Positions 37,305 through 56,473 of a DNA stretch of 58,156 nucleotides are shown here, one piece after another. Position 1 is the stretch's first letter. Every line of letters begins with the position of its first letter. Source of the DNA: Lysobacterales bacterium (GTDB lineage Bacteria > Pseudomonadota > Gammaproteobacteria > Xanthomonadales > SZUA-5). The notes beneath the pieces are model-generated. The model was not told where the DNA came from. It saw nothing but the letters and a program-made list of their open reading frames with translations, and ran no database searches. Position numbers and translations under genes: made by a program. Where the stretch lies: positions 1 through 58,156 of the forward strand of contig JALHMH010000031.1 in NCBI GenBank assembly GCA_022844165.1. The letters are read 5' to 3'.

Positions 37305-38489
37305 TCAAAGGTCGTTGACAAAAGCCACCAGGTCATCGCGCTCGCTTTGATTCGCCCAGCGAAACTTCTCGCGCGCCGGTAGCCCTTCCCCACCATGCCA
37401 CAGAATCGCCTCCGCGACGCCGTCAGCCCGCCCGTCATGCAATAGCTGTTGATGACCGTTCACGGCGCGAATCAAGCCAAGGCCCCAGAGCGGCGCCGTG
37501 CGCCACTCCCGGGCGTATTCGATGTGGCTCATTTGCGGGTCCGAGAGTGCTGCTCCCAAGTCGTGAACGAGCAGATCGGTATAGGCGAAGAACGTCTGGT
37601 TCGCGAGCCAGTCCGGCTGCGCGTCGGCAACAGTCCGCAGCATCGGTCGGTGACACGCCGCACAGCCGAAGTCACCGAACAAAGCTGATCCTCTGGCGAC
37701 TGCCGCCGACGTTGGCGAACGGCGCGGCGGCACACCGAGGAAAGCGAGATAGCGCGTCAACCGATCGACATCGCGAGGACCCATTTCCGGCTCGCCGCCA
37801 TGCGTGGCTGCCGCGCAACCGGCCTGAGCCGACGTACAGTTTTGCCGCGGGAATTCATCTGTCGAAATCCCGATGTCCTCAATGGCTGCCGCCACGACCT
37901 GACCGCGCAATGCGGCCACCTGCGACTTCCATCCAAACTTGCCCAGGTTGCCATTCGTCCAAATCGCCCGGCCGCTGATGCCATCACTGTTGCGATCCGA
38001 AGGGTCAGCCCAGGCGACAACCATCGCCGCATCGACATTCTCAATCAGCCCTAACCCAAAGACCGCTGGCGCAACCCGCGGCGCCAGGCGCACGTCGCTC
38101 GGCAATTCGCCATACGCGAGGCGATCCACACCAAACACCGGCCGTTTCAAGACCACCGTGCTCCCGTCGCCCATGCGCACCTCTACCGGTTCCCAACGAA
38201 CGACCAGTTTCGCTTCAGGTGTCACATTGGCGATTGCCTGATCCTGCATTTGCCGGCCATAGGCGTGAAGCGGGGTGCCGTCGGCGTGGTGCCAACGCAG
38301 CACCATGCTGCTCGACTCTCGATCGGGTACGCGCCCTCGCCCATCGCGCACATGGCAACCCGAGCACGAATTGCGGTTGAACAATGGGCCCAGGCCGTCG
38401 AAGGCCGCGGCCGACGCCGGCGCAGGCACCCATTGGGTGTTGAACAGCCGGTTGCCATAGTTAAACTCACGCAACTCCGGCGCTGAGCG
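37305..38489 (-). pseudogene. Di-heme oxidoreductase (DUF1111-like), 5' end missing
   Basis: DGLGPLFN..SCSGCH..DGRG, GCAACH, TDLLVHD, EWRTAPLWG, LLHDGRA; no signal peptide, and an in-frame stop at 38490-38492. Confidence 0.8.
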
Positions 38490-41400
38490 TCAGCGGGCGC
38501 ATCACCGATGTCAGCAACGGCACGCCGGTGGGCGGCGCAATTATCGCTGTAGCAGGTACCGCGATCACGGCGCAGAGCGATGCAACCGGTCACTATCAGC
38601 TTTCCGGCATCGCAAACGTTCCGTTTTCGCTGAACATCACCGCATCGGGTTATCAGTCGCTGACCTTTACTAACCCATCAACGGCGCATGGCAGCTTCAC
38701 CATGAACGTGGCGATGACCCGCCTGGCCGGAGGCAGTTTCGCGCTGGAAGGGCTGACGATTTCTTCGCCAGAAATCGACCCTTATACCGAAGTCGGCGTG
38801 CTCGGAACGGTGCGCAACACCGGCACCAGCGAGGCAGGGCTGATCTTCAACGCCATCATTTACAACACGCAGCAACAGGTTGTTCGCGATGTTCCGGCTG
38901 TGGTTGTTGGCGCCCATATGCAGCCCAGCGAGGCGATACTCCCGATGGCTGCTGGCGCGACACGCGCAGTTACGATCGCCTGGGGCATACAGAGCGATCC
39001 TCCGGGGACTTATCAGGTTCGTTTCCGTGGCCTAACGCCCAGTGGTCAAGTCGCGGTCGAAGGCAATACCAACTACAGCGTTCGCGCGGTGCGTCGCTTG
39101 GGCGGTGGCATCGACGCCGATCCGCCGTTGTTGCAGGCGGGCCTTGGGCAATCGGTTGCGGTAACGGCCAAGCTTGGAAGTCTAGGCAATCTTCAGATCG
39201 GCGCCGGGTCTGTGGAGCTGACCGCAACTTTGGTCAGGGCCGATACCCGCCCGCCGTTCCCGACCGTTCCAGAAGTCGGCGCGCCAGTCGTTCAGGGCGC
39301 TCCGCTAGCGCAACCGGTCGACGCTACAAGCGATTCGGCAGGCAATGTCTATGTCGTCAATCGATTCAACCGCGAGTTGATCCGAATTGCGCCGGGAGGA
39401 TCGACCTCCACTTTGCGCGCTCTCTCTGGGTTCTTCAACGGCACCACCACGGGAATGGGCGAGCCGAGGAAATTGGCCATGCACCCAGACGGTCGGTTGC
39501 GGGTTCTTTGGACTGGCGACTACATCAGTGCCATCGAACTTACACCGCCTTACTCGCAAACGGACTCGACGCCCAACTTAGGTGGCGGCGTAAGCGCCTA
39601 TGACATCGACAATCAAGGTAACGAGTACTTCGCCGGTTTCATCGCAGGCAAGTACCAGCTGATCAAACGCTCGTCTGCGGGCAACGTGAGCACGCTCGCC
39701 GAATCCAGTTTTAACCGCGTTGCGCAAGCAGCAGTTGGTGCGAACCAAAATGTCTTCGTCGCCGACGAGTCCGGCATTTTTAGTGTTGACCCATCGACGG
39801 GACGAACGACACGTTTACTCGGTGGGATGCAGCCAAGCGGAATTCTGGCGCTCTCAAATGGCGATCTGCTCATTGCAGAGAAGAGCCTCAATCGCATCCG
39901 GCGATTCAGCAATGGTACCTTGACGACATTTGCGTCTCTGCCGTCGCCAGAGCGCCTGTCGCTTGGTCTCGATGGCAACGTCTATGTGTTGCAGAGCGCC
40001 GCGTCGCGGATTAGTCGTGTCGATACTAACGGCGCCGTTGCTGTGTTCGCCTCGGCATTGATCGACAGCCCGACTGCGCTGAGCTTTGATGATCAACAAC
40101 GACTTCTGGCGCTGAATGCCAAAGAACTCCGCCGGCGCAACGCTGACGGTTCGATTCACACGTTGGCGACCGGATTTAGCGCTGGCGCTGCACTTGCGCC
40201 TGCTGCGGACGGCACTATTTTTGTTGGCGACATTGGTTCCGTCAAACGCGTGACATCGCAAGGAGTGGAGACACTTGCGAGCCTGACAGGAAGCTCTGTT
40301 CGCGCCTTGACAGTCAGCGCGAGCGGCGAGGCGGTGGTGGCACACAGTGGCTCCCGATCAGAAGGGCTTCTCCGCCTCAACGGCGGCAATTTTGCATCGA
40401 TCATTGAGATACCGTCGGCTTTGAATGACCTTGGTTTTGTCGATGGTCGACCTGTACTGAACGACGGCGACCAGTTGTTTGAAATTGGCAATCGACTGAC
40501 ATTGCTGGGTAGCAGCTACGGGACTTCGGGCGAGCTTCTGGGCAGTTCGCGAAACGACCTTTACTTGCGCGTCGTTTCCGGCAGCGCCGGGCAAACTGGA
40601 CTGTTCAAGGTCTCCGCCGATGGATCGCGCGCCCTGATGTCGACTAACACCACCAATTGGTACGGGCGGGCTGCGATTGACAACAACGAGCACGCAATTT
40701 TCGGCCGCACCGATCGCGGCGTGTACCGATTGAATTTGGCGACGAACGAATCGCAACTACTGGTCACGATGCCGGGTGCTGAATTCCCATGGCGAATTGC
40801 TGTCGACGATACAAATCGAGTATTCGTTGAATCCAACTCCCAAAAGCTCTACCGAATCGATGGCGCGTCCTTGGTCTTGATCGAAGGCGGTGCGCAGGGA
40901 TTGATCAGCCGGCCCGGCGCGAAACCCTGGTGGCGATCAACGCTGCAATTGAGGACTCTGGGCGCGAACGATGCGATCGAAAATGTGGGGGCGCTGGAAA
41001 CGCATGCCGATCTTTGGGCGCCGAGCCACGATGGAAAGCTGGCCCAAATCACAGGTACCCGACGCTTTCGGCTGCGTGAGCCATCGGGCGCAGCAACATA
41101 CGATTTGCCCCTCCCCGGCAACATCGTTTCCGTCGCGACACTTGCGCAGGACTCTGTCGTAGCGGATGTCCAGGGGCGCATCCATCGTATCGCAGCGGAT
41201 GGCTCGATAACGCGGGTTGGACCAGACACCTATACCAGAGCGCGCAAAGTGTCGGTTAATCAGGGGAGACTGTTCGCCCTCCACTCGGATGGCGTCTACG
41301 AAATCACCAATGGTTCGCCCGTGTTCCGCTGGAGCCAATCGAGTTGGGGCAACGACCATAGGTTGTTCGACGTTAGCGGTCAGCTGATCGCTGCGTCGGA

Positions 41401-44400
41401 TTCGTTTACGGGCGAAATCATCGTATCGAACGACAATCATGTCGTCGCAAGTCTGGTTCCGCTGTCGATCATGACCATGTTCGCGCCACAATCCGACGGC
41501 CGATGGTTAGCGGCAAGCAGTAACCGCCTGGTGCAGATCGCAGCGGATGGCCTGAGCTCCCGCGTCATTTACTCTTCCAGTTCCATCAGCCTCGCGGACT
41601 TGCAACGAACGCCAACGGGAGACGTGCTGGCGCTGGACAGCGGCTTGTCGCTGTACCGCGTTAGTAGCGATCTGAACTTCGTCGCCATCGCAACGCGACC
41701 TGAGACTTTCGGCTTGAACTTCCCCTGTTTGGCGATTGGGCCGGAGGGTTCGACCTACGTCGCGGGATCGGGAGGACAAGTACTGCAGCGCGAAGGACAG
41801 TACCTACGTCGGCGCGCCGGAGGCATGGTTTCGGTCAGCGACATCGACGTTGACTCCGGCGGCCTTGTGTACTTGACAGACTCCACGTCCGGTTCGCTGG
41901 GTGTGATCGATGAAATCGGTTACCGGCGTCTGGCGTCGGGTTTTTCGGCGCCATTCAGTCTCACGCTACATTCGGACAGCGAGATTCTAATCGGCACGGA
42001 TCAAGATATCGTGGTGAGCGATGCAGAGGGACGCTGGTCGCGCCGGTTACTCACTACCCAGATGCGCGGAGTCGCCAGGAGCGGCAGCCTGTCGGCACTC
42101 GCGATTGACGCAGCGAACAGAGCGATACCCATCGCACTCGGACAACCCTCACTTCCCGTACCTGAGGGAACCGTTGTCTATCGTCGTACCCTGCCGCACG
42201 GGCCCTATGGAGCAAGCAATACCGAACTGATCGACTTTGGCTCCTTTGTGCCTCCAGTTGGGGGGGACTACGAGATCACTGCGCGTTCCACCCAAACAGA
42301 CGTGATCGGCCAAGCCACCACGGGATTGCATGTAGGGCCCAACACCGTTGCACACATGAACGCCGAACCGTCTCGCACGGTACCCGGAGACCGAACCGTT
42401 CGCGTCGGAACTCAAATCGAGGGCGGCGACTTCTCATCGATCTCGCGGGTCGATATCAGCCTGCTGCAACTGGCGATTCCCGAGTCCATCAATCCTCTGG
42501 CACTCGGCGCCGATGCTTCCGGGGCGCTGTGGTTCCAAAGTACGTCCGGGCTTTGCCGCGTTCCCCCCGGAAGTACTGCGTCCACGACTGTTGTGCCTGG
42601 ACAAACGTTGAATCGCGGCGAGGTGCCGGTTGACAGCCAGCAGCGAATCTACTTCGCAAAACGAGGCACGCAAGTCGCAACAACACAAATTATGCGCGTC
42701 AATACCGATCTCTCGAACGAACCGTTCGTTACCGTGACTGGTACCGTCGTGAGCATGACCATCGACCCTCTCGATCAGTTGTTTGTGCTGCTGGATGGAA
42801 AGATCCAGCGGATCGCTGCAAACGGTTCCATCAGCGACTTCATGACGATCCCGGCTGGCACACCTTTCGGCATCACGCGCGACGGAGCAGGTAATTTTTA
42901 CGTACTGATGCGGCAGAACATCATCTACAAGATCGACCCGCTCAGAAATTTGACGACGATTGTCTCGGATGCAACCTTCGAGTATGAAAATTTCAATATC
43001 GCAGGAACCTGCGCAGAAGGGCTGTTTTTTACCCCGTTCACCTACAACCGACTGGGTCAAAGCGGTGAGGAATACACGATTGCCCAAGTGCTCAGCAGCG
43101 GCGAGATTGGCGCGGTTTTCAATGGCTACGCCGTTTCCGAGAAGCTCACTGATATCGATCTGATTACCTACGATCGATTCCGCAGCAGACTTCTGATGTT
43201 TACGCACGATGCAGTGACTTTTCGCACTTTTTCGATTCCTGTGACCTGCGGTGCCATCGATGTCGCGCTGCACGTGGTTCTGCCTGCCGGCCAGGCCTAC
43301 TCGAATGCTTCGCCCGCCCCAACGCAGACGATTGAACTCAGTAATGGCGACAAGGAGCTGGTTTTTGAACTGCGCGATGTGAATCGCCAGGGCGTTTCCA
43401 TCGACTTCGATACCGTGCTGTCGAATTTGATGCGCGGCGAATCGCGAGCCGTTGCCAAAGCAGCGACACTGGTATTTCGCAACACTTTTATAGCAGAGCC
43501 AGTGCGACTAACGGTTCAGGTGCCGCGCGTCGATGTGGAAGATCTAATCGACATAGAGGTGTCGACGGATCGAACCGCGTACCCGCAAAACACGGCAGTG
43601 AATATCGATTTGTGGCTGCGCAACGAGCAATCGTTGGCAGCGAGCGGTCGCCTCGTGGTGAGCGTTGTGGACGCTGGCGGCGCATTGGTGGAACGTCTGA
43701 TCGATCGAACCGAACAACTCGATGCCAGCGAGGCGCGCGAACTCGATCCGCCCTTCACCACCGGATCGCGCCGTGCCGGCGAGTACCGCGTACTGGCACA
43801 GATGTTTGCCGATGACGGAGTGTTGGTGGCCGAGCACAGCTCAGCTTTTGCGATCACCGCAGGGGCCGGAACGCCGGCGCTGACGTCAACGGTCGCAACC
43901 GATCGCACGCAGTATGTGCCGACAGCAACCGCGCTGATTGCAGCCCAGTTGACCAATCCAAATACCAATCAGGCGTTCAAAAATTTGACCGTACGCGAAA
44001 CGGTGCTCAAGCCAGACGGCAGCACGTTGCAGGTGCTGACGCGCGCGGTGCCGAATCTGGAACCCAACACAGACGTGCGCCTGGACTTCGAATTGCCGCT
44101 CAGCAATGCCGCCACGGGGCGATACGAAGTCCGTCAACAAGTGCTCGACAGCGCCGGCTCGGTCCTGAGTGCACCGACGACAAGCTTCGATGTCATTGCG
44201 CAACAAGGTAACGATGCGCTTTCGGGCTCGCTTGCCGTAGCACCCCAATCCGTACCGCGTCCGCAGCCAACCCAACTGACCGCAACCGTGCGCAACCGCG
44301 GCAGTGCGGCGCTCAGCGAAGTGCCACTCGCGCTGCAAATCCTCAACCCGTCGCAAGGCAATGCGCTGCTGCGCGAGTTCTCCTTCACACGCAATATCGC

Positions 44401-47400
44401 CACCAACGAAACGATCGCACTGGAGCAATCCTGGAGCACCGAGGGCATCGCACCGGGACCTTACATCGTCTTGCTGGTCTCGAAACTCGGCGGCGAAACA
44501 CGCGTGCTCGATCAAAAACCACTGACCGTGCTGGCGCTAATCGTCAACGGCACAGTGAGCGCGACGCCAACCCAAGCAACTCAGACGCAAGCCATCGCGC
44601 TGAATGCAACAGCGCGCAATGTCGGCAATCTTGCCGGCACCGACCTGCCCTTCGTCATGCGCTTGATTCGCAACGCGAGCGGCAATGTGGCGCGAGAGTT
44701 TGCCTACACCAGCTCGCTTCCTGTCAATGGCGAACTGACACGCAGCGAGTCGCTCGCCGCCGGGAGCCTGCCGCTAGGCGAGTACCGAGTCGAATGGTCG
44801 CTCGCAGTTGCCGGCACCACGCAGCCGCTGGCGCAGGCCGAATTGCGTATCGTCGGCGCGCAAATTGGCGGCACATTGGAAGCCTCTCCGGCATCGCTGC
44901 AGCTTGGCGAAGTCGTGCAACTCAACGGAACTGTCCGCAATACGGGCAACACAGCCTCTGGCGCAATTCCGGTGCGACTTGAAGTTCGGCGACAAGACAC
45001 GCAGGTTGTCCAACAATCCTGGAACGACAGTGCGACCATTACCGCTAACGGCATCTTTGTCATTCAGCGCCAGTGGACCGCAAACAATGCTGCCCGATAC
45101 GATGGCGTGCTCCAGGCCCAACTGGATGGAACCTGGCAAACACTATCGACAGCGACTTTCTACGTGCTGGCGCCGGCGGTCGACGTCCAACTGCGCATGG
45201 CCGTGCAACGCGATGCTCGTCTGCTGGTGCTGGTCAGCTGCGACCCCGGGCAAAGCCAGAACGGTTCGATCGGCAGCAATCCAGCGCTGACAGAAACGAT
45301 ATGCGAATCGAACAAAAAGATGTTCCTGGAGCAGTACCTGACCCAGATCGCGGTAGAACACACTGTGGTGACCACGGCAGAGGCGTTCTTGCGCGAGTTG
45401 CGCTGCGGTCGCTACAACGTGTACTGGCTCAGTGGCGGCAGCGAAAAGCTCTCCGTGTCGGCAAGCAAAGAACTGCGCGAGACAATTTACCGCGGCGAAG
45501 GTCTGATTCTTGACGGTAGCCACGATCAACGCACGGCATTGCTCGACACCATCGCGGGATTCAACTTCCGTGGCCGGCATGCGCAGGAGAACCAAGTTTT
45601 GCGCGGTAGCGGCACGCTGCTACCGGCGGCGGATGTCACGACATATGGTCGTGCGTTGAATCTCGAACTCAGCAGCGGTCAGTTGCAGGCCACTTTCGTC
45701 GCTACCGCGAGTCCTGCGGCGATCAGCCACAGCTTCGGCCAGGGTCGCACGATGACTTACGCTTTCGATCTCGTTGAGGCTCTGCGACGCGACACAACTC
45801 AGCCGGCGACCACGCGCTTGCTCGACGCAGCGCTGTTCCATGTCGCACCCACGGTGGTGACGGCGGATCATCCTGCGAACGGCTACGTGCCGGTGACCAC
45901 AACCATCGAAAACCGCGCGGCATCGGTCAATTTGAACCTGCGCACTGACGTATCGACACCGGGTAGCGTCGCTTCAAGCGCACCCGCACCGACCAGCAGC
46001 GATCCGCAATCGGCAACCTGGGAGTTCGGTCTGGCGACTGGGCAGACCCGCAGTTTCGACGTTGCAGCTCGTCTTCCGAGTGCGGCCGACACAACTGTCC
46101 GTAGCACCCTGCAGCGGCGCAATGGCGCGCTGCTGGAACCACTGTCGAACCAAAGCGCGGCGCTGCCGCTTCGGCAGGTTTCTGCCACTGCGCAATCGTT
46201 GATCGATGGGCTCAATGCGGCAAACCTGTCTGGTGGAGAATCGCAAGCGCGAAACCGTGCAGTGACTGCGATTCAAGCGGCCTTGGCGGCGCATCAGAGT
46301 GGCGATTCGCTGAGCGCCATCGCCAGGTGGATCGACGCCGCCGAGGACATTGTGCGCATTGGCTCCATGCCCCACGCCGAGTGGCGCCTCGCCAATACGC
46401 GTTTGCTCGAAGTCAGCCAGCGCGCGGCGTGCTCTGCTGTGGCGCCGAGCTGCAACGTGCTCGGTGCGGCGGGCGACTACAACGGTTTCTTCTTCGACAG
46501 TTACACTGCATTGTCGTCGGATGTACAAGGCCGATTGGCGGCAGGTGGCAACGTTTCGTTGAACAACTACAGCATTGCCGATCAGTTGCCGACGGATTTC
46601 TCCGGCACTTCGCTGCTGGTTGGCGGCAATCTGATTTTCCCATCGGGCCGCGTTTACCGTGGCGACATTGTGATCGGCGGCAGTGGAGCTGGTGTCGGTG
46701 CGCCCGTGATCAATGGCCTGGGACCGAATCAGCGGTTGATTCAAAACGCACCGATGCCGATCGACTTTGCCGCTGAGCGCACGCGTTTAATCGCCGAGAG
46801 TCAGCGCTTGCGCACCTTCCCAACGAACACCACTCATGAGTACCAGTGGGGCGGGTTGTATCTGCATGGCGATAACACCAGTCCGGTGCAGGTCTTCAAC
46901 TTGAATGGGCAACAAGTACTCGATGCGCACACATTTCAGGTCGACCGCATTCCTGCCGGTGCCACAGTGCTCTTCAACGTTTCTGGCACCAACACGGGCC
47001 TGACCAACATGAGCCTGTCGAGCTTGATCGCACATCGTAACAAGGTGCTGTTCAACTTCTACGAAGCCACCAGTCTGCAACTGGCAGGCATTTCCGTGGA
47101 AGGCAGCATTCTCGCGCCGATGGCGAATCTGGATAACCCCCAAGGTGTGATTTGGGGAACCATTGTTGCCAACCGCTGGAATGGTCAAATGCAGATCAAC
47201 CTTGCCGCGCATTCGGGTTGCATGGTGGCGCCCGTCGCGCCGCCAAACCTGTGCGCGTCGACCCCCACCACGCCGGTTAAGGTGGCAACTGGACAAGGCA
47301 CCTTTGGCGCCTTCGAGTCGCGCGAGCGGCTGGAGGTTCGCGGTGGTCGCACGGGTACGGCGGATTGGGAATGGGGACTGGGCAGCAACACACAGTCAGC

Positions 47401-47851
47401 CGGTCAGTTTGTCAGCGAACACCTCAATTGGATCCATGGCAAGGACTATCGTTTCGTACTTCGCTACGACGGCCAGGGCAGCGGCAGCTACCAGGTCCTC
47501 GATGGCAGCAATTTGCTGTTTACCAAGACTTTCAACGCGGGACCGGGTCGCCAGCTACGCACCGGGAACGCCCTTGAGTTGTTCGCGAAGACCAACGCCG
47601 GACAGGGCAGCGCGCGCGTCGTGACGACGTTGAACCGCCTGGAGAACGGCAGCTATAGCGAAACGCTTCAAACCGCAGGCGACAATAATTATAGCGAGGT
47701 CCGGAGCATCTACTTCTCGCCTGCCCTGGTGGATGGCTTCGAATTGGAAGGAACGATCCGACTGGAGTTCACGGGGACCGCGCCACCGACCGGCTCACGC
47801 CTGAACTTTTTCGTCACGGCCGGTAACCTGACGTGTGGAGCAGCGCCATGA
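38465..47851 (+). CDS. Giant extracellular multidomain protein (carboxypeptidase-regulatory-like, NHL-type propellers, CARDB/Ig repeats, choice-of-anchor A), 5'-truncated
   Basis: Frame opens mid-domain (LSVSGRITDVSNGTPVGGA); repeated D..GN(V/L)YV propeller blades; repeated VRN.G Ig units; SSDVQGRLAAGGN...VLFNF..A...GSILAP at about 46460-47215. Confidence 0.85.
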   Translation, partial: THATPALSVSGRITDVSNGTPVGGAIIAVAGTAITAQSDATGHYQLSGIANVPFSLNITASGYQSLTFTNPSTAHGSFTMNVAMTRLAGGSFALEGLTISSPEIDPYTEVGVLGTVRNTGTSEAGLIFNAIIYNTQQQVVRDVPAVVVGAHMQPSEAILPMAAGATRAVTIAWGIQSDPPGTYQVRFRGLTPSGQVAVEGNTNYSVRAVRRLGGGIDADPPLLQAGLGQSVAVTAKLGSLGNLQIGAGSVELTATLVRADTRPPFPTVPEVGAPVVQGAPLAQPVDATSDSAGNVYVVNRFNRELIRIAPGGSTSTLRALSGFFNGTTTGMGEPRKLAMHPDGRLRVLWTGDYISAIELTPPYSQTDSTPNLGGGVSAYDIDNQGNEYFAGFIAGKYQLIKRSSAGNVSTLAESSFNRVAQAAVGANQNVFVADESGIFSVDPSTGRTTRLLGGMQPSGILALSNGDLLIAEKSLNRIRRFSNGTLTTFASLPSPERLSLGLDGNVYVLQSAASRISRVDTNGAVAVFASALIDSPTALSFDDQQRLLALNAKELRRRNADGSIHTLATGFSAGAALAPAADGTIFVGDIGSVKRVTSQGVETLASLTGSSVRALTVSASGEAVVAHSGSRSEGLLRLNGGNFASIIEIPSALNDLGFVDGRPVLNDGDQLFEIGNRLTLLGSSYGTSGELLGSSRNDLYLRVVSGSAGQTGLFKVSADGSRALMSTNTTNWYGRAAIDNNEHAIFGRTDRGVYRLNLATNESQLLVTMPGAEFPWRIAVDDTNRVFVESNSQKLYRIDGASLVLIEGGAQGLISRPGAKPWWRSTLQLRTLGANDAIENVGALETHADLWAPSHDGKLAQITGTRRFRLREPSGAATYDLPLPGNIVSVATLAQDSVVADVQGRIHRIAADGSITRVGPDTYTRARKVSVNQGRLFALHSDGVYEITNGSPVFRWSQSSWGNDHRLFDVSGQLIAASDSFTGEIIVSNDNHVVASLVPLSIMTMFAPQSDGRWLAASSNRLVQIAADGLSSRVIYSSSSISLADLQRTPTGDVLALDSGLSLYRVSSDLNFVAIATRPETFGLNFPCLAIGPEGSTYVAGSGGQVLQREGQYLRRRAGGMVSVSDIDVDSGGLVYLTDSTSGSLGVIDEIGYRRLASGFSAPFSLTLHSDSEILIGTDQDIVVSDAEGRWSRRLLTTQMRGVARSGSLSALAIDAANRAIPIALGQPSLPVPEGTVVYRRTLPHGPYGASNTELIDFGSFVPPVGGDYEITARSTQTDVIGQATTGLHVGPNTVAHMNAEPSRTVPGDRTVRVGTQIEGGDFSSISRVDISLLQLAIPESINPLALGADASGALWFQSTSGLCRVPPGSTASTTVVPGQTLNRGEVPVDSQQRIYFAKRGTQVATTQIMRVNTDLSNEPFVTVTGTVVSMTIDPLDQLFVLLDGKIQRIAANGSISDFMTIPAGTPFGITRDGAGNFYVLMRQNIIYKIDPLRNLTTIVSDATFEYENFNIAGTCAEGLFFTPFTYNRLGQSGEEYTIAQVLSSGEIGAVFNGYAVSEKLTDIDLITYDRFRSRLLMFTHDAVTFRTFSIPVTCGAIDVALHVVLPAGQAYSNASPAPTQTIELSNGDKELVFELRDVNRQGVSIDFDTVLSNLMRGESRAVAKAATLVFRNTFIAEPVRLTVQVPRVDVEDLIDIEVSTDRTAYPQNTAVNIDLWLRNEQSLAASGRLVVSVVDAGGALVERLIDRTEQLDASEARELDPPFTTGSRRAGEYRVLAQMFADDGVLVAEHSSAFAITAGAGTPALTSTVATDRTQYVPTATALIAAQLTNPNTNQAFKNLTVRETVLKPDGSTLQVLTRAVPNLEPNTDVRLDFELPLSNAATGRYEVRQQVLDSAGSVLSAPTTSFDVIAQQGNDALSGSLAVAPQSVPRPQPTQLTATVRNRGSAALSEVPLALQILNPSQGNALLREFSFTRNIATNETIALEQSWSTEGIAPGPYIVLLVSKLGGETRVLDQKPLTVLALIVNGTVSATPTQATQTQAIALNATARNVGNLAGTDLPFVMRLIRNASGNVAREFAYTSSLPVNGELTRSESLAAGSLPLGEYRVEWSLAVAGTTQPLAQAELRIVGAQIGGTLEASPASLQLGEVVQLNGTVRNTGNTASGAIPVRLEVRRQDTQVVQQSWNDSATITANGIFVIQRQWTANNAARYDGVLQAQLDGTWQTLSTATFYVLAPAVDVQLRMAVQRDARLLVLVSCDPGQSQNGSIGSNPALTETICESNKKMFLEQYLTQIAVEHTVVTTAEAFLRELRCGRYNVYWLSGGSEKLSVSASKELRETIYRGEGLILDGSHDQRTALLDTIAGFNFRGRHAQENQVLRGSGTLLPAADVTTYGRALNLELSSGQLQATFVATASPAAISHSFGQGRTMTYAFDLVEALRRDTTQPATTRLLDAALFHVAPTVVTADHPANGYVPVTTTIENRAASVNLNLRTDVSTPGSVASSAPAPTSSDPQSATWEFGLATGQTRSFDVAARLPSAADTTVRSTLQRRNGALLEPLSNQSAALPLRQVSATAQSLIDGLNAANLSGGESQARNRAVTAIQAALAAHQSGDSLSAIARWIDAAEDIVRIGSMPHAEWRLANTRLLEVSQRAACSAVAPSCNVLGAAGDYNGFFFDSYTALSSDVQGRLAAGGNVSLNNYSIADQLPTDFSGTSLLVGGNLIFPSGRVYRGDIVIGGSGAGVGAPVINGLGPNQRLIQNAPMPIDFAAERTRLIAESQRLRTFPTNTTHEYQWGGLYLHGDNTSPVQVFNLNGQQVLDAHTFQVDRIPAGATVLFNVSGTNTGLTNMSLSSLIAHRNKVLFNFYEATSLQLAGISVEGSILAPMANLDNPQGVIWGTIVANRWNGQMQINLAAHSGCMVAPVAPPNLCASTPTTPVKVATGQGTFGAFESRERLEVRGGRTGTADWEWGLGSNTQSAGQFVSEHLNWIHGKDYRFVLRYDGQGSGSYQVLDGSNLLFTKTFNAGPGRQLRTGNALELFAKTNAGQGSARVVTTLNRLENGSYSETLQTAGDNNYSEVRSIYFSPALVDGFELEGTIRLEFTGTAPPTGSRLNFFVTAGNLTCGAAP

Positions 47852-47904
47852 GCTTTCGCAGCAATAGCGCCAAAGTTGGCCGCCTTCACTTTGTTGGACA
47901 ACGC

Positions 47905-50900
47905 ATGATCTCGATTCGCCCTACCCTGATCGCCGCGCTCTTTGCTACCTGGATCACGCCGCTGGCCGCGCAGGCACTTGGCACAGCGCCGCGGAGCAGC
48001 ACCGAGTACGCAGCCGCAGTTGCACGCGCCGCAGACGCTGCGGAAGCCAGACTAACCGATGGTCGCAAGGCGCTCATCGACATCGCCGTCACGCACCCGC
48101 GGCTGCTCGAACGGCAGCGTGCGGCCGAGTTGGCCGTCGCCGAAGCGCGGCGCGCTGCATTGGAAGCGCTCTCCCAACTGGAACGTGGTTCCGACACTGA
48201 GCGGCAGCGCGCGCTGGAAACCCTGGATCGTCTGCTGGCCGCAGCGCAGCGGGTTGATCAGGAAGCACCTGTGGTCCAAGCCTCGCGCATCGAACTGGGC
48301 TTGATTCCGGAATCGCAGTCACCACGACCCGCACCGAGCCCGGCCGATCTCGCGCCAACGCTCGATGCGCCGCTGACGGCCGCCATTAGGGCCAAAGCCG
48401 ACGAACTCGACAATGCGCCAGTCGAAATTTATGAGTGGGTGCGCAAGAGCATCACGTTGGTACCAGGGCGCGGCTCGTTGCAGGGTGCGGCAGGCACATT
48501 GGAAACTGGGCGCGGCAATCCGACCGATCACGCCAGTTTGTTGATTGCGCTACTGCGCGCTGCCGGCGTGCATGCGCGTTACGCTAGCGGGCAAATCGAG
48601 ATCGATGCCGTACGAGCACGCGCCTGGTGGGGCGTCGATCGCACAGAGGCCGTGGTTGAGTTGCTCACCGAAGCGGGCATCCCGTTCGACACCGTGATTG
48701 TCGGCGGCGAGATTAGCGCACTGCGGATGCAACATATGTGGGTGGAAGCATGGATCGATCTGGCACCATCGCGTGGCGCCAAACATCGCATCGGCGACGC
48801 CTGGATCGGACTCGATCCGAGTTTCAAGGAACTGACGCTCACGCCGGGTGCCGATTTGTCGACCTGGATGGCGCTGGATGTCAATGCTATTCGCAATGCC
48901 GTCAATGCTGCAGCAATTGTGGATCAGGCGGCTCTAGCCCTGCAATCGCTGGGTGCGAACAGTCTTTCGCAACAGCTGGGTCTGGCGCGGCAACGATTGT
49001 TGGACGCGCTCGGCTCGCGCAACTTGAGCAACGCGCGCATCGGCGAGTTGTTGCCGGGTGCCAACGACGCCACGCCCAACTACCCGTTTTTCCTCGGCAA
49101 CCTGCCCTACCGGGTGCTCGCCGCGAACGACACAACCACCAGTCTTGGCGAACTGGAACGTCACCGCCTGCAGTGGATCATCAAAAGCGACGACAACGGC
49201 CAACCCGGCGCCGCTGTGTTGAGTTTCGACCAACCGACCGTCGCGTTGGTCGAAGCGCCGCTTGACCTGCGTTTTGTGCCAGCAGAACTTGCTGATCGCG
49301 ACGCGCTGTTGGCGCTGGTCCCTTCGAACCTCACACAGTTCGCCGACCTTCCCGAAGCCTTGCCCGCGTATTTGATCGAACTGCGCGGTGAGATCTGGCT
49401 CGGCGCCACCCGAATTTCGTCAACGAACGCACTCGGACTCGGAAGCACCCTGCATGCCGAGTTGCGACAGGTAACGCCCACACAAACGCTCACGCGCCAC
49501 GAGACCATCTTTGTTGGCGAATCGCGCAGCCTTAGTTTGTCCTGGCATGGCGGGCTCCAACATACGTTGACGCGCGCCCGCGGTCGCGTCAGTGCGGCGC
49601 GCGACGCCATCAGCGCCACCACACCGTCCGTCGATCTGATGCCCGCGCTGCTGCAGTTGACGGGCAATGGCCATTTTTCGGTGTCCGATGCGTACCAAAG
49701 CTGGTTGGCAGGCATCCATCGCGTGCGTTTTTACCGTGAGCCTGGCATCACTTCGAGTTACACCGCGCTTGAGGTCGCCGCACCTTTCGGCGTCATCACC
49801 AGCGCTTGGCCGACGGGGTTTGGCCTCACTGACGTTACGCCGCCACACCTCGGAAGCGCGCTCGTTGGCGGCGCCGAACAACGATTTGTTCATCAGAGCC
49901 TGGGCACCCAAGCGGCGTTCGGGCACCTGTTGCTGTCACAACTATTTGGCGGCACCGGGCGCTCGACCCCCGCGCTGCTGAGCGCCAACCTGGCGGCAGA
50001 ACAGCCGGTACACACCTTCAGACCCGATCAGGCCGCATCATTGCCCGGCGGATTGCCGCCCGCGATGCGCGGACCTCTGCAAACAGCCTTGGCTCGAGGC
50101 GACAGCGTTACGGTAAATGGCACGCCGGCCAGCCTGGGCGGATGGAGCGGCTTTGGCGCGGAGGTCACCTATCCGGCCGGGTTGGGCGGCAGTAGTTTTA
50201 TCGTCGGCCAGCAGCGGCCCGAAGCTGGCGCGCAGCGCACTGGCGCGAACACTTCGAGCACACTCGCGCGCGGCGCATTCTTCACCGGTGTGCTGGGCAC
50301 CGACCTGCCAACGCATATCCTGCCACTTTGGCTGCAAGAGCTGGAGCGCGCGCTGGCGGCTGGCGACGGCTTGATTGCAATCGCACGCAACCCGCAAGGT
50401 CTGGGGCTATCGCCCGTCATGAGCGATCTGCTTGCTGGCGCAATTCTGGATGGCACCATCGGCACCGGCCTGAATCCGTTGATCGATGCGCCATTGTGGG
50501 GCCATTTGATCTCACCAGTGTTGTCGATTGCACCTTTGCTCGATCCCACCCCGCCGACATTGGCCTTGAGCGTCAGCCCCAGGACCATCGATCTTGGTCA
50601 GAGCACGACCATCAGCGCCAGCGCCAGCGACAACCGTGAGGTGGCAGCATTGGTCGTCACCGCAGGCGGTGTGCCAATAGCCCTCGACCAGGGCCAGGCC
50701 ACACACACACCGTCGCGCACCGGCGTGCTTCCTGTCATCGCCACCGCACGTGATAACGCCGGCAATATCACCGAGAAGCGTGAGGACCTGCTGGTTCGGG
50801 CACCGGGCGATACCGCGCCGCCTGTCGTCGAGATCGTCACGCCGGCGGATAACGCCGCCGTGACGCAGCCAACCGAGGTCATCGGCAACGTCACCGACGC

Positions 50901-53900
50901 GAGCCTGCGCTATTGGCGACTCAACCTTCGCCCCGGCAACTCGCCGAACGTGCCGGCCATCGTCCTCGGCGAGGGCGAGCAAAATCAAACCGCAGCTGTG
51001 CTCGGCCGCATCGATCCGACGCTGATGTTCAACGGCGTGTACGTGCTGATCCTTGAGGCCGAAGACGCCAACGGACTGCGCAGCCAGTACACGACCCAGA
51101 TCCGCGTTGATGGCGACATGAAGATCGGCCACTTCCAGATCAGTTTTGAGGAGATCGAAATCCCGCTGCAGGGCATTCCGATTCGCATTACGCGCACCTA
51201 CGACACGCGCCAGGCTAAAGAAGATCTGGACTTCGGCTATGGCTGGTCGATCGACTACCAGAACGTGCGCATTCGCGAGAGCCGCAAGCTCGGGTTTTCG
51301 TGGACCATGCAGCAATCGGGCGGTGGCTTTTCGCCGTTCTGTGTACGCCCGGCCGGAACGCCGATGGTGACCATCACGCTGCCCGATGGCGAGACCGAGC
51401 AGTTCAACGCCAAGTGGAGCCCGGAGTGCCAGCAGTTCCTGCCGCCGAACGATGGCTTCCTGACCTTCGTCCCTGCCAATGGCAAGACGCACTCGAAACT
51501 GGAGCAGACCAGTTATGGCTCTCTGCGCTGGGTGAACCTGGGCAACGGCGCGAGCAATCTGGCCGATTTGAGTGATCCTTTTGTGCCGGTCGATCCGCGC
51601 CACTATCGTCTGACCACGGAAGACGGCATGGTCTACGACCTCGATCAGGAATTCGGCATCACCAAGATCACCGATCAGGCCGGCAACTTCGTGCGCTACA
51701 CGCGCGATGGCATCACCCACTCCACCGGTGTGTCGGTGCAGTTCGTGCGCGATGCGCAGGACCGCATTACCGATATCGTGCTGCCCGATGGCCGACGCCT
51801 GAAGTACCGCTACAGCGCCGCAGGCGATCTGATGGAAGTGGCGGATGTGCTCGGCCAGAAGACCACGTTCGCGTACCTGCAGAACATCCGCTATCCGCAC
51901 TATCTGGACACCATCACCGATGCGCGCGGCGTGCGGGCGGTGAAGCACGAGTACGACGACGGCGGACGCCTGATCGCCACCACCGATGCCAATGGCGAGC
52001 GCATCGAGTACGTGCACAACATCGCCGGAAAGACCGAGACCATCAAGAATCGCCGCGGTCATTCGACGACGTACGTGTACGACGCGAACGGCTGGGTCTT
52101 GAGCGAGACCAACCACTTGGGCGAACAAACGCTGCGCACCTACGATGCCAACGGCAACGAGCTGACGCGCACCGATCCCTTGGGCCGGCGCACTGAGAAC
52201 ACGGTCGATGCGCGCGGCAATGTGCTCACCGAAAAGGACGCGCTGGGGAACATCACCACGCGCACGTATGGGCGCTACAACCAGCTGTACACCGAAGTCG
52301 ATGCGCTGAATCGCACGGTGGTCACCAACACCTACATGACGAACCTGCTGACCGGCGATGAGACCTCTTACCTGTTCGACACCAAAGATGCGCTCGGCAA
52401 TCGCACGCTGATGCCGCACGACATCTGCGGCTCGCAGTGCCCGAACACCGGCAACTTGAAGTCGATCACCGATCCGATGGGCAACCAGACCTCGTTCTCT
52501 TACGACAGCCGCGGCAACGTGACGCGCGAGACCGACCCGAACGGCAACATCGTCTCGCGTACGTACGACGCCATGAACCGCCTCACGCGCGAAATCCGCA
52601 CGCGGCAAGTCGCTGGCGCACCGGAATCGCTGACCACCGACTACACCTACGATGGCAAAGGGCGCCTCATTGAAACCAAGCACCCAGACGGCAGCATCAC
52701 GCGCACCAGCTATAACGCCATCGACAAGGTCGAGACTGAGACCGACGCGCTCGGGCACGTGACGCGCTACGAGTACAACTCGCGCGGCGAGCAAACCGCT
52801 GTCATCCACCCCGACGGCGTGCGCGAAGAAACCGCGTACGATCCAGAAGGCAATGTGATCGCGCAGACCGATCGCCTCGGTCGCACCACCAAGATGGTCT
52901 ACGACGCGGCCAATCGGCTGATCGAGACGATCCATCCCGACGCCACGCCGGATGATGCGGACAATCCGCGCACGCGCAGCGAATACGATGCCGCCGGTCA
53001 GTTGACTGCCAGCATCGACGAGCGCGGTCAGCGCACCAGCTACCGTTATGACCTGGCCGGCCGCCAGATCGAGGTCAAGAACGCGCTGAACCAGACGATG
53101 ACCACGAGCTACGATGTGGCCGGACAGCGCACGCAAGTCACCGACAACCTGGGCCGCACCACGAAGTTCGTGTACGACGCGGCGGGCCGGCTCACCGAAA
53201 CCATCCACCCCGACGCCACCGCCGGCGATGCCGACAACCCGCGCACGCGCATGGCCTACGATGCCGCCGGGCGCAAGATCGCTGAGACCGACGAGATGGG
53301 CCGCACCACGCGATTTGCGTACGACAAACTGAGTCGTCTGGTGGCTGTGGTATTGCCGAATCCGGCCACCGGCGCCAATCCCGAACTGATCGATGGCGCC
53401 AGCCCCGACGCGGGCACGCTGACCACGCGCTATCAGTATGACGAGCAAGGCAACAAGATCGCGCAGATCGACGCCGAAGGCCGCACCACGCGCTGGACGT
53501 ACGATCGCCAGGGGCGACAGCTCACGCGCACGCTGCCGATGGGTCAGAGCGAGTCGTTCCAGTACGACAGCAACGGCCAGCGCGTGCAGCACACCACGTT
53601 CAACGGCGAAGCCATCGCCACCGCGTACGACAACCTGGGCCGGCCGACGACAGTGACGCTGCCGGGCAAGACGCGCACGTTTAGCTACGATGCTGGCAAT
53701 CGGATCACATCGATCCAGGAAGGCGCCGACACCTACAGCTTCCAGTACGACGTACGCGATCGCCTGATTCGCGCCACGGATGCGCAGAATCGTTCCATCG
53801 ACTATGCCTACGATGCCATCGGCAATCGCACGCGCTTGAGCACGCCGCGTTAGCACGTCGACTACGCGTACGACGAACTCAATCGTCTCACCGAAGTGAT

Positions 53901-55857
53901 CGCAGTCCTCGACCAGGGCCGCGCGCAGACGACGAGTTATGCTTATGACGGCGTCGGCAATCGCGCCGGCCAAACGCACCCGAACGGCACCACGGTGGCT
54001 TACACGTATGACGAGCGCAATCGCTTGAAGACGTTGTTGCACAAAGCCAGCGCGGCGGCGAACGCGGCCATTCTGCTGAGCTTGAGCTACAGCGTCGACG
54101 CCAGTGGCTTGCGCACGCAAATCGCCGAGACGCGGCCGAACCCGACGGCGAGCCAACCGGCGATCACGCGCACCACCGATTACCAGTACGACGCGGTCAA
54201 ACGCCTGACGCGTGAGCAGGTGACCGGCACGCAAAGCCAGGGGCGAACCACGGTCTTCACCTACGACAAGGTGGGCAATCGCAAGACCGAAGCCACCAGC
54301 GGCACGCTGAGCAAAAATCAGACGCTGACCTACGACAACAACGATCGACTGACACGCGTCGCCGGCACCGGCGGCACCATCGATCATGTGTACGACAACG
54401 CCGGCAATCTGATCGAGAAGAAGCAAGGCACCGCGACGCTGGAACGCTACACCTTCGACGCCGAAGGCCGGCTCACCGCGGCCACCATCGGCACCGGCGC
54501 CAGCCAGAAAGTGCTGAGCTACCGCTACGACCCCAACGGCATCCGCAGAAGCCAGCACGTCGAGACGGCAACGGGACAAGCGCGAACCGAGTACCTCGTC
54601 GACCCGAACCAGGCGTACGCGCAGGTGCTGGAGGAATACGAGACGCAAGCAGCCACCGGCGCTGCCCTGCCCGCATCAGCGCTGGCAACCACGTACGTCT
54701 ACGGCGACGACCTGATCAGCCAGACCCAACTCGCACTGGCCGGCAACACCACACACGTCTACCACTACGACGGACTCGGCACCACACGAGCCCTAAGCGC
54801 CCACAACCTCGACGCCAGCGGCAACCCAGTCACCACCGGCCCGAACCCCCACGCCGCCATCACCGACCGCTACGCCTACACCGCGTTCGGCGAAAACGAC
54901 CCGGCGGGGACCAGCGGGAACACCGCGGGGACGACGGAGAACAACTACCGCTACACCGGCGAGCAGCTCGATCCGAACTTGGGGTTCTACTACCTGCGGG
55001 CCAGATACATGGATCCGCGGCAGGGGCGGTTTGTGGGGATGGATCCGTGGAGCGGTGACTTTAACGATCCCCTGTCGCTCCACAAGTACATTTTCGCAAA
55101 TCAAGTTCCCAGTGCTCTTGGGGATCCGAGTGGAGAAAGTGCAACCCTGATCGGCGTTGGCGTGTCGGCTGGCATAGGAGCGGTGATGGGTGTTGCATCT
55201 ACGCATCTGACGAATGTCGCTTTGGGCCGTGCTTCAACTGTCGGCGAACTAGCAATGGGCGCTGCCGTGGGCGCAGCACTAGGCGCGGGCGGGTACTTTT
55301 GTCCGAGTTGTTTGATTCCCCTGGGACTTTATGGTGTTGCTTCATCAGGCGCACTGGTTGCGGACGTGTGGACTGGAGAAGGAACGACGATGAAGCAGAA
55401 GGCTGCAGCGGCTGTGCTTCTAATTACTTCAATCGGCGGGACAGCAGCCGGGCAGAGGGTCGCCTCGAATATCAGGCAACTTCATGGTTTCGGCTTACTA
55501 CATGACCGAAGTGTCCGCGGCATCTCTCGCCTACTCACTTGGGCAGGTGTTAATCACCGGCTAGAGGTCTACGTAAGAAATCCATTCTATCGTCGAGGCA
55601 GACGCTATGACATTGTTGTTCAAGTTCCTGGAACTGGAAGATACATAGGTGTCGAATACAAGTCCTCGATGTCTGAATACCTGTATCCGAAAGCGAATCA
55701 GTCGTCGGCAGACCACTTCGTCAAGACTCAAGGTGGCGAAATGTTTGGTTCTGCTGCCGGGCCATACGGCGGCGCCAGCGTAACCGGTGTGGTAAGAATC
55801 AATGGCGGACGAAACCTCGTGTCCACATGTTCGGCGGGTATAGATTGTGAAGAGTAG
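47905..55857 (+). pseudogene. Signal peptide + inactive transglutaminase-like + Ig + RHS repeat protein with C-terminal toxin; one in-frame TAG at 53851-53853
   Basis: LAAQA signal end; DHASLLIALLRAAGVHARY, HMWVEAW, LDPSFK; DFGYGW; many YD repeats; YTGEQLD...YYLRARY...DPSG core; ORFs 47833..53853 and 53896..55857 share a frame. Confidence 0.88.
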
Positions 55858-56473
55858 ACCAACCAATCGCCTCAGGTACCTTCGAAACGAAATGCTTAGT
55901 TTCGGTTTTGGCGTTGTGGGCGCGAAATTTTCTCATGAGCAAAAATTCCACCGAGCGACAGAATACGGTGCTTTTGTCGTAGTGGTGATTGCACACGAGA
56001 ATAATGATTCGGGGGAGCACTGTTTTTTAGTTGGTGTCAAAGACGACTTGATTGGTCCAATTGTAAATCACCCATCAAAACGAGAATGTGACGGCTATGA
56101 TATGAGCCTCAATAGGTACTTAATCACAACGGGTGTCAATGTTAACATAGGACTCGACGAGCAATACGAGAGGGCGCTCGATAGGTTACTGACCGATCTA
56201 AACACTATTTATGATCGATTTAGCACTCGTCGAGCCTACTTTAAGACCGTTACTGGATTGCCGGAATATTTTGACAAGGCTTTTGCCATCGCGGCTTCAG
56301 GTTATTATGGAGATCGGAGGCGGTGGGCAGCAGTGGCAAAATCTTGGGGCCTAAAGGAACGGATATTTAGAACGCTATCGTTTGGAATAAGTTCTACCTT
56401 AATCGCGCCCGTCCGTTTCCACAGATTATCAAAGTTTCTTCGTGATGAAGAACTTCCGGACTGGCCAGTTTAA
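55847..56473 (+). CDS. Putative immunity protein
   Basis: Low-GC 208-aa ORF overlapping the RHS stop by 11 nt, the usual toxin-immunity arrangement. Confidence 0.6.
   Translation: MKSRPTNRLRYLRNEMLSFGFGVVGAKFSHEQKFHRATEYGAFVVVVIAHENNDSGEHCFLVGVKDDLIGPIVNHPSKRECDGYDMSLNRYLITTGVNVNIGLDEQYERALDRLLTDLNTIYDRFSTRRAYFKTVTGLPEYFDKAFAIAASGYYGDRRRWAAVAKSWGLKERIFRTLSFGISSTLIAPVRFHRLSKFLRDEELPDWPV

Follow-up and report, generated by a model that had tools for sequence, protein, structure and literature searches.

Where components of a type VI secretion system (T6SS), a type V secretion system (T5SS) or a toxin complex (Tc) are lacking, the route by which Gram-negative bacteria bring Sec-exported polymorphic toxins, RHS toxins included, to their targets is an open question. 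It is raised again by a locus at positions 38465-56473 of a 58,156-nucleotide stretch of DNA (hereafter the window) from a Lysobacterales bacterium (assembly GCA_022844165.1), which corresponds to the whole of contig JALHMH010000031.1 (C31) in a genome of 4.68 Mb, 59 contigs and 99.97% completeness. A sequence-only reading of the window had proposed that a giant adhesin, a Sec-exported RHS toxin with a dead transglutaminase domain and an immunity protein form an under-described toxin delivery system here. Our analysis suggests, with a probability of about 0.6, that the locus represents, in decayed form, a T6SS-independent polymorphic toxin system with Sec signals, whose constant N-terminal module carries exchangeable payloads and is coupled to a giant partner gene.

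The locus was first described as three tightly packed genes in the same orientation. The orientation and the packing stood, and the count did not: the + strand of 38465-56473 holds four co-oriented, closely packed frames, of 3128 codons (38465-47851), 2001 codons (47848-53853), 667 codons (53854-55857) and 208 codons (55847-56473), the RHS gene being split by a TAG. The ATG of the RHS gene overlaps the TGA of the giant gene as ATGA and a GGAG lies 6 nt upstream, which fixes the RHS start at 47848 and points to translational coupling of the two genes. The features of the toxin gene and of the frame behind it are as follows.

47848..53853, + strand: RHS toxin gene, first piece of 2001 codons, from ATG to an in-frame TAG at 53851-53853
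47848..47976, + strand: Sec-type signal peptide of 43 residues, read by eye, ending in AQA before LG
48379..48819, + strand: Cys-less transglutaminase-like core (Transglut_core, E 7.9e-15, residues 183-329)
48820..50559, + strand: conserved part of the N-terminal module without a family; the end motif of the family is degenerate in the window copy (50140-50208)
50560..50901, + strand: two Ig-like domains of PKD and Big_7 type (PKD E 0.0033, Big_7 E 9.4e-5, both under the curated cut-offs)
51115..55137, + strand: RHS/YD shell, interrupted by the TAG (RHS_repeat, PF05593, E 5.1e-108 and 2.8e-16)
53851..53853, + strand: in-frame TAG stop, shared with two other assemblies (loci L009 and L093)
53854..55857, + strand: RHS toxin gene, second piece in the same frame, 667 codons; its first start, GTG at 53896, gives 653 aa
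55138..55854, + strand: toxin tip of 240 aa, with a Gly/Ala-rich hydrophobic stretch (~55138-55460) followed by a D...ExK hairpin domain
55847..56473, + strand: 208-aa ORF whose first 11 nt lie within the RHS gene, an immunity candidate by position only

The RHS protein opens with the leader MSFRSNSAKVGRLHFVGQRMISIRPTLIAALFATWITPLAAQA, which we assigned by eye as Sec-type and which resembles the leaders of the 56 family members aligned. A helical stretch of about 140 residues separates it from the transglutaminase domain, where Pro occupies the canonical Cys site (GNPTD, 48514-48528) and the His and Asp motifs are kept (HMWVE, 48733-48747; LDPS, 48811-48822). Behind the core, about 580 residues (330-909) match no Pfam family, and the two Ig-like domains that follow are weak matches of families also present in the relatives (precomputed Pfam list). 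Thus, the Sec-type signal, the dead transglutaminase, the unassigned stretch of some 600 residues and the two Ig domains of the sequence-only reading were all recovered. The shell comprises 16+3 RHS repeat stretches and an RHS-associated core (~54877-55134; TIGR03696, Rhs_assc_core, E 2.9e-13) that ends in GDPSGE (55120-55137); repeats plus a core with a terminal DPxG motif are those of an RHS/YD cage. Repeats, core and tip are therefore present as predicted, and the shell is cut by the TAG, so that shell and tip do not share a single uninterrupted frame. This domain content is far beyond chance, judging by the family E-values and by the 13 relatives found, 12 of which combine Transglut_core with RHS repeats (the 2001-aa product of the first piece is P0001 in our collection of relatives).

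Such an architecture is already in print. Zhang et al. (2012, Biol Direct 7:18; PMC3482391) described inactive-transglutaminase toxins, in silico only. The passages of that paper on this class give a signal peptide or transmembrane (TM) helix, then the transglutaminase, RHS repeats, a variable C-terminal toxin and sometimes bacterial Ig domains; they predict export by Sec and the type II secretion system (T2SS) and suggest a non-catalytic anchoring role for the transglutaminase domain. The protein of the window shows the same order of leader, dead transglutaminase, Ig, RHS and variable tip, with the leader near the domain and one triad residue lost, and it very probably belongs to this class. 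The architecture can thus no longer be called under-described. Compared with the class as presented in those passages, the systems studied here differ in having a conserved giant partner gene and in that most members of the module family have no RHS; in the export-pathway table and the accompanying passages (PMC3482391), the T2SS/Sec class has no signature neighbour gene. Full-text searches of the literature outside subscription journals returned, beyond Zhang et al. (2012), no paper on Sec-dependent transglutaminase-RHS toxins, no experimental test of them and no mention of the giant partner gene. As far as searched, neither the breadth of the module family nor its conserved giant partner has been described, the RHS architecture being known in silico.

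The constant module measures about 750 aa and consists of the leader, a long helix, the Cys-less core and about 450 aa without an assigned fold. To gauge its breadth, a profile of 56 module sequences (A3) was searched against cluster representatives among 1.84 billion, and it matched 10,579 representatives at E ≤ 0.001, 7,579 at E ≤ 1e-10 and 4,151 at E ≤ 1e-30. Among the best 150 matches, nearly all had a length of ~700-1300 aa and most of 950-1150 aa. A typical family member has about 1030 aa, and RHS fusions are a minority (about a dozen of 78 loci). When 401 sampled genomes of the phylum were searched, 11 matched at E ≤ 1e-30, the genome of the window included, some of them partially (tail-only or core-only). 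The protein-atlas clusters retrieved for one homologue (P0015) are all named 'hypothetical protein'. Loss of the catalytic Cys extends to all 56 members, with Ala (43), Asp (7), Ser (4) or Pro (2) in the canonical Cys column and Cys in none; the His is kept in 53/56 and the Asp in 56/56, an invariant Asn/Asp pair flanks the lost Cys, and eight members have a Cys two residues upstream. The ~450 residues behind the core matched no Pfam family in any of the 44 non-RHS members (E ≤ 0.1), and a profile search of the module against the PDB returned only the transglutaminase core and an N-terminal segment with a TM helix and a long helix.

The module ends in a motif with the consensus DPxTGAGAYxIxGGxNGG, behind which the sequences diverge. 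In nearly all pairs compared, tails were 17-45% identical and modules 45-86%. Two or more hydrophobic 19-mers occur in the tails of 33 of the 44 non-RHS members, which are Gly/Ala-rich and multi-pass; other tails belong to NlpC/P60 (three), prokaryotic phospholipase A2 (PLA2; one) and DUF6310 (one), with a second DUF6310 in a tandem copy. The next open reading frame (ORF) has a membrane-like segment in 29/39 cases, and behind the three NlpC/P60 tails it carries one leader-like segment at its N-terminus. At both DUF6310 loci, a DUF5953 gene follows; the literature searches described above returned no paper on either family. Eight RHS-fused tips were scanned, two of which are NucA/NucB, one GIY-YIG and five unassigned, and precomputed lists add AHH and NucA/NucB. 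SUKH-1 or DUF1963 was found in two of five scanned ORFs downstream of RHS-fused relatives. The tips of the window, of L009 and of nine out of ten relatives all differ from each other, in line with the polymorphism expected from the outset; the tenth (P0011) is not counted, as its tip had no clear boundary. Taken together, this is an effector-immunity pattern, with payloads that would act in the periplasm attached directly to the module and nucleases that would act in the cytoplasm caged in RHS. In a FastTree phylogeny of the module (without support values), RHS fusions were spread over several lineages, and non-RHS members surrounded one of these, suggesting that fusion to RHS was repeated or repeatedly lost. 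The hydrophobic tail also seems to exist as a stand-alone small protein: two short ORFs (G700:C4:126595-127206, 247 aa; G623:C16:57854-58474, 223 aa) have matches to the module profile that are confined to its tail end (~773-996).

In the window, the tip opens with about 110 Gly/Ala-rich hydrophobic residues followed by YDIVVQVPGTGRYIGVEYK (55606-55662). The motif YDIVV...VEYK read from these positions suggests that the tip may be a PD-(D/E)xK-type nuclease. The tip has no match in Pfam (E ≤ 1), NCBIfam, PADLOC or the PDB, a search of longer proteins returned only the tip itself, and no homologue was found among 400 sampled genomes of the class; BLASTP against one relative (P0010) produced spurious alignments only, and the tip diverges from that of L009 after about 55050. 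The 208-aa ORF behind it likewise matched no Pfam (E ≤ 1), NCBIfam or PADLOC family, nothing in the PDB, and nothing in the 78 loci or the 400 sampled genomes of the class. It lies at the position where two relatives carry a SUKH-1 or DUF1963 ORF.

We then asked whether the giant gene is a regular neighbour of the module. An alignment (A1) led to 183 encoding places in contigs of one genome per species, from which 78 loci were kept, and the giant of the window was searched by tblastn within 10 kb of each module gene. In 48/78 loci a homologue lies beside the module gene, co-oriented with it and upstream in 37 or downstream in 10, and divergent in one. Of the remaining 30 loci, 13 were too short and 17 had at least 4 kb of flank with no match. 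A profile (A4) of a C-terminal domain of the giant matched 42/78 loci and added two, for a total of 50/78. The gap from the stop of the giant to the start of the module gene did not exceed 200 nt in 34 of the 37 upstream cases; it was negative in six (five ATGA and one single-base overlap), 0-60 nt in 15, 61-200 nt in 13 and larger in three. Paired loci came from Pseudomonadota, Myxococcota, Geobacter-type deltaproteobacteria, Nitrospirota and Acidobacteriota. Carriers include isolates of Alcanivorax, Alloalcanivorax, Marinobacter, Endozoicomonas, Methylobacter, Methylovulum, Moraxella, Undibacterium, Duganella, Andreprevotia, Dokdonella, Acidovorax and Archangium, as well as metagenome-assembled genomes of Geobacteraceae, Nitrospirota and Acidobacteriota. 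In the genome of the window, the giant query matches only C31 and one place on contig C26, which sets the chance of accidental adjacency at about 1%. Counting any frame of at least 1300 aa as a giant was rejected, because about 30% of this GC-rich genome lies no more than 10 kb from such a frame.

These counts bear out the conserved linkage to a CARDB/NHL-type giant that the sequence-only reading wished to see examined. A second pair was found in the same genome on contig C29, where a 5706-aa CARDB/Big/fn3 giant with a leader lies directly upstream of a leader-bearing transglutaminase-RHS gene. This giant does not match the A4 profile, and the partner is thus not one single family. A signal for the type IX secretion system was considered in the C29 giant and rejected, the CHU_C match being internal. 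At the C26 place (C26:50738-65512), a 2139-aa cadherin/Big_9 adhesin precedes a 2636-aa giant with toroid, CarboxypepD_reg, CARDB, FG-GAP and Calx-beta domains, and the 152-aa ORF behind the latter runs off the contig and bears no relation to the module. Possibly this is a third giant locus, its partner gene missing because of an assembly gap. Pairwise distances of the partner domain and of the module correlate (r 0.54, a value reached in 0/2000 permutations), which shows co-inheritance, not binding. The partner consists of two genes at two loci, and at L039 the choice-of-anchor A domain is a gene of its own; at some loci (L043, L029), one giant is followed by tandem toxin genes. On this evidence, a functional partnership of the toxin module with the giant is likely.

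The giants of the relatives share a frame. Most of the 17 giants compared have a leader followed directly by toroid repeats of the WLxxQxxxDGS type, a few frames being cut by the flank or leaderless. The repeats match squalene-cyclase-type toroids (PDB E about 5e-6; weakly SQHop_cyclase, Prenyltrans and TED in Pfam). A thioester in the toroid was considered and rejected: the 12 toroids examined all lack a C.EQ motif of the thioester type, the C..Q strings of two of them are not of this type, and the Cys count is zero in three toroids and one in six. Behind the toroid come CarboxypepD_reg repeats, a variable middle, MG2/CARDB repeats and the A4 domain. The middles consist of NHL or FG-GAP propellers, NIDO, IgGFc-binding, DUF642 or cadherin-like domains, and we infer that a fixed frame with a swappable middle would fit a binding protein. 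The copy in the window has the following parts.

38465..47851, + strand: giant gene, 5'-truncated, 3128 codons, stop TGA at 47849-47851, first start GTG at 38528
39827..43129, + strand: beta-propeller region with NHL/Vgb-lyase-like blades, approximate limits (Pfam Vgb_lyase E 2.8e-13, NHL E 8.4e-8)
43892..45085, + strand: beta-sandwich repeats of MG2/CARDB type (MG2 E 1.1e-6, CARDB E 3.2e-6)
45200..46450, + strand: conserved unannotated C-terminal partner domain (A4), with GATase1-like (GH42 trimerisation-like) and CARDB-like parts
46460..47815, + strand: C-terminus of the giant, choice-of-anchor A (ice-binding-like adhesive) and choice-of-anchor W (pAdhesive_15 E 4.3e-56, TIGR04215 E 3.4e-59, NF041928 E 2.3e-14)

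Pfam and NCBIfam thus confirmed a giant adhesin with CARDB/NHL-type domains, made up of CarboxypepD_reg, an NHL/Vgb-lyase propeller, MG2/CARDB, choice-of-anchor A and choice-of-anchor W, with a weak VgbA-like match in NCBIfam at residues 1425-1534. It is 58% identical to the giant of L009 over 3147 aa. Its MG2 match scores 29.4 bits, below the cut-off of 32.8, and that of the L039 giant 46.2 bits; the MG2/CARDB region (43892-45085) matches the giants of most related loci. The A4 domain has no Pfam family at E ≤ 10 except one chance-level match, and it was found in 29 loci by tblastn (E ≤ 1e-6), in addition to the profile count above. The A4 profile matches the GATase1-like trimerisation domain of GH42 beta-galactosidase (E 8.7e-5) and, more weakly (E 0.23-0.46), chains titled 'Uncharacterized protein' and 'Cell surface protein', which we take to be CARDB-type domains.

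As to the export route, no TssC (PF05943) and no PAAR (PF05488) were found in the genome, which argues that delivery is not by a T6SS; of five other genomes with the module, three likewise have no TssC and two have it far from the locus. PAAR, VgrG, Tc and two-partner secretion (TPS) families were absent from the giant, the RHS protein, the two flanking ORFs and the 23 upstream ORFs scanned. TPS domains and TpsB were missing from the scanned ORFs of the window, the rest of the genome not having been searched for TpsB. On both points, T6SS-independence and the lack of PAAR, VgrG, TcA/TcB and TpsB in the window, our results agree with what had been stated. The genome encodes three secretins and one GspL, and GspL was found in 8/10 module genomes. 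Export of the toxin system by a T2SS is possible on the basis of this gene content.

Among characterized systems, Tc toxins (TcA plus TcB-TcC) come close in that a giant component is encoded beside an RHS cocoon with a variable toxin. However, the RHS protein of the window has no SpvB, TcdB_toxin_midN or FG-GAP N-terminus, the giant has no TcA family (Pfam only), and both protein types carry Sec leaders here. Two RHS proteins with a TcB-type N-terminus (SpvB, FG-GAP, TcdB_toxin_midN) occur elsewhere in the genome and run off contig ends (C39:32575-40416, C35:44521-49368). WapA and the bacterial teneurin-like proteins (10.1101/2025.11.11.687626), described in the parts of that source on this group as Sec-dependent YD-shell toxins mostly of Gram-positives and Myxococcota, share a Sec leader, adhesion domains, a YD shell, an encapsulated polymorphic tip, an immunity gene and the lack of a known dedicated injection machine. 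As described there, their TTR, FN-plug and NHL domains are part of the toxin chain, which has no transglutaminase module, whereas here TTR-like and NHL domains lie in a separate giant and the hosts are diderm. T6SS Rhs effectors are similar in their RHS cage, whose core motif is autoproteolytic, in their polymorphic tip and in their immunity gene (a candidate in the window); they differ in the PAAR- or VgrG-binding N-terminus that the protein of the window does not have, in a genome without TssC and PAAR. The umbrella toxin particles of Streptomyces are reportedly Sec-secreted multi-protein assemblies of a long-stalk polymorphic toxin with lectin subunits on an inactive protease fold. Their likeness is one of logic only, their hosts being monoderm and their subunits small, and no sequence relation is expected. 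Finally, alpha-2-macroglobulin resembles the giant partner in its MG2-type beta-sandwiches and TED-like alpha/alpha toroid, and differs in domain order and in its thioester (no C.EQ in the 12 toroids); the MG2 match of the window is under cut-off and the window copy has no toroid.

The sequence-only reading treated the locus as usable, a view that did not survive, as both large genes are damaged in the window. The giant frame opens at 38465, right behind a TAA and inside a CarboxypepD_reg domain, and it has no signal peptide. In a genome of the same genus (G001, the source of L009), the orthologous giant has 553 more N-terminal residues, consisting of a signal peptide, the alpha/alpha toroid and CarboxypepD_reg repeats; the missing part was not found elsewhere in the assembly of the window. 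Without a start and a leader, the giant of the window is not exportable, and the toxin system in the window is probably inactive. The junction is marked by one further gene.

37305..38474, - strand: di-haem oxidoreductase (DHOR) gene, 5'-truncated, abutting the truncated giant (Pfam DHOR E 2.2e-65, profile positions 147-498 of 499)

This gene encodes 389 aa in the window and 464 aa in G001, the alignment starting at residue 75. Since the giant is truncated and the DHOR gene is shorter and reoriented relative to G001, the junction at ~38465-38485 is either an inversion or deletion scar or an assembly join. The DHOR gene adjoins the giant in both genomes of the genus (G001:C10:22176-23570), in opposite orientation and with only 62% identity, and another neighbour of the G001 locus has a 92%-identical counterpart on a different contig of the genome of the window, suggesting that the toxin locus was moved or rearranged. 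Public reads (four runs of one study, one of which contained 0.81 of the sampled words) gave short contigs at about 4x depth, of which none listed bridges ~38475. No RNA run was listed as containing the stretch.

The second lesion is the TAG at 53851-53853. Unless it is bypassed, the RHS gene ends prematurely. A bypass would mean that the stop is no dead end and that the toxin is still made, either as a two-chain cage (like the TcB and TcC cocoon, to which a functional split would liken it) or by low-level read-through, and this explanation is independent of how the giant and the module work together. Several observations favour it. The same TAG is common to three assemblies, and in G001 it sits behind an intact, leader-bearing giant. 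The RHS gene has no further stops or frameshifts, and its two pieces add up to full length, the 12 RHS-bearing relatives being single chains of 2276-3488 aa. Moreover, 18 of the 24 codons changed relative to L009 downstream of the TAG are synonymous, although these changes may predate the stop. On the other hand, L009 carries the TAG within 260/260 identical nt, in a 900-nt block (53157-54056) of 100% identity to the window and within a tract of about 3.2 kb (51657-54806) of 91-100% identity; the giant and the transglutaminase part are ~68-70% identical, the flanks of the tract about 68%. The tract is apparently a recombination tract, and the TAG within it was possibly spread by one recent recombination event. 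The next start codon lies 43 nt past the TAG with no ribosome-binding motif by eye, and a suppressor tRNA was considered and rejected, there being no CTA anticodon among the 47 tRNAs of the genome. In L093, a metagenome contig, the TAG lies in a 5'-truncated orphan fragment. The recurrent TAG might mark a natural two-chain RHS cage, and on balance we consider a bypass unlikely.

L093 (182-1336 on the - strand, 1252-2071 on the + strand) is 99.4% identical to the window over 807 nt, its RHS fragment adjoins a 384-aa gene that by eye resembles an IS200/Y1 transposase, and its first 357 bases correspond to sequence that follows the L009 locus downstream. In the genome of the window, ARAGORN also reported a tRNA-like gene (at 2045-2141) to which it assigned no identity and whose anticodon has four bases (ttgc).

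Upstream of the locus, the neighbours are housekeeping genes (GcvP, CarB, LptD, SurA, PdxA, AlaS, ThiC), and a scan for promoters and terminators stayed at the level of shuffled sequence (8 vs 6.6 and 20 vs 20.7). Past the immunity candidate, an ORF at 56867-57832 on the - strand matches CARF-family models of PADLOC (PDLC01915, E 1.8e-71) and no Pfam (including E ≤ 1) or NCBIfam family. The GC content drops to 0.476 over 56001-58000, at the contig end around this ORF, which may be part of a defence island. At 4895-8305, a glycosyltransferase with a weak 'GT4-conflict' match (E 8.4e-7) adjoins a DUF4062 protein on the opposite strand (E 2e-16); the two may be conflict-system genes unrelated to the toxin locus.

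How, then, would such a system work? In our model, both proteins would leave the cytoplasm through Sec and cross the outer membrane by a T2SS or another, unknown route, to the surface or the medium. The dead transglutaminase module would bind a peptide of the giant or of the envelope and so dock the toxin on the giant or on the cell surface, the variable middle of the giant would bind target cells, and the payload would be released at the target to act on membrane, wall or DNA. In the window, this payload would be an RHS cage around the 240-aa tip, in which a putative PD-(D/E)xK-type nuclease follows a hydrophobic Gly-rich segment, and the candidate immunity gene comes next. Whether giant and module form a true physical delivery apparatus is a more tentative matter, for which we see a serious possibility at somewhat below even odds. 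Our confidence is similarly restrained for the fuller proposal that they represent an unrecognised two-partner apparatus of diderms working without T6SS, T5SS or Tc, with the giant as exported, target-binding scaffold, the Cys-less module as universal docking adaptor and payloads, from RHS-caged nucleases and a phospholipase to wall hydrolases and membrane-inserting tails, swapped behind GGxNGG.

Several results weigh against the reading of the locus as a decayed toxin system with a coupled giant. The tails of many ~1030-aa members are 30-45% identical between genera, hence not unrelated, and a small membrane ORF behind a multi-pass tail would fit a membrane complex just as well. No giant homologue was detectable at the 17 loci with at least 4 kb of flank, the giant of C29 falls outside the A4 profile, and shared ancestry contributes to the distance correlation. 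Two of the 10 module genomes (Moraxella macacae and Methylobacter luteus) yielded no GspL. The tip and the immunity candidate of the window have neither homologues nor families, and their toxicity and immunity rest on position only. Lastly, a TAG recurring in three assemblies, one of them with an otherwise intact operon (G001), argues against simple decay of the RHS gene.

Two other explanations concern the partnership itself. In one, which follows Zhang et al. (2012), the dead transglutaminase only holds the toxin on the surface of its producer through peptides, and the giant is a co-expressed adhesin or matrix protein outside delivery. The anchoring role is proposed in print, in the passages of PMC3482391 on this class, and the wide variation of the middles (from NHL and FG-GAP to NIDO, IgGFc-binding, DUF642 and cadherin), the C29 giant without the shared partner domain and the 17 loci lacking a giant would all be expected. 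What speaks against it is that adjacency is kept across five phylum-level groups with stop and start codons overlapping or nearly touching, that a conserved partner-specific domain adjoins the toxin gene, and that single giants precede tandem toxin genes in L043 and L029; we hold this explanation to be rather improbable. The other, that giant and ~1030-aa tail-anchored protein are not primarily a toxin system and instead form an envelope or surface complex (e.g., for protease trapping in the manner of alpha-2-macroglobulin) with enzyme and RHS tails as secondary fusions, draws on the full-length alignment of most top family members (tail included), on the multi-pass tails with small membrane ORFs behind them and on giants with MG2-type domains and a TED-like toroid, but is very unlikely given that NlpC/P60, PLA2, DUF6310/DUF5953 and RHS-caged nucleases share one position, that SUKH-1 or DUF1963 stands behind two RHS-caged tips, that tails are far less conserved than the module, and that the toroid has no thioester motif.

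We therefore retain a Sec-signal-bearing polymorphic toxin system, decayed in the window, as the preferred reading of the locus. The damaged copy has little value for experiments; intact loci are present in several cultured isolates, among them Dokdonella fugitiva RH2WT43, Andreprevotia lacus DSM 23236, Duganella sp. Root336D2 and Alcanivorax sp. DG881. For the question of how Sec-exported toxins of Gram-negative bacteria reach their targets, a large unnamed family with a conserved giant partner and exchangeable payloads is a concrete and testable candidate route. It also provides a function-level lead for thousands of proteins annotated as 'hypothetical protein, Transglut_core' and for the giant toroid/MG2/CARDB proteins encoded beside them.

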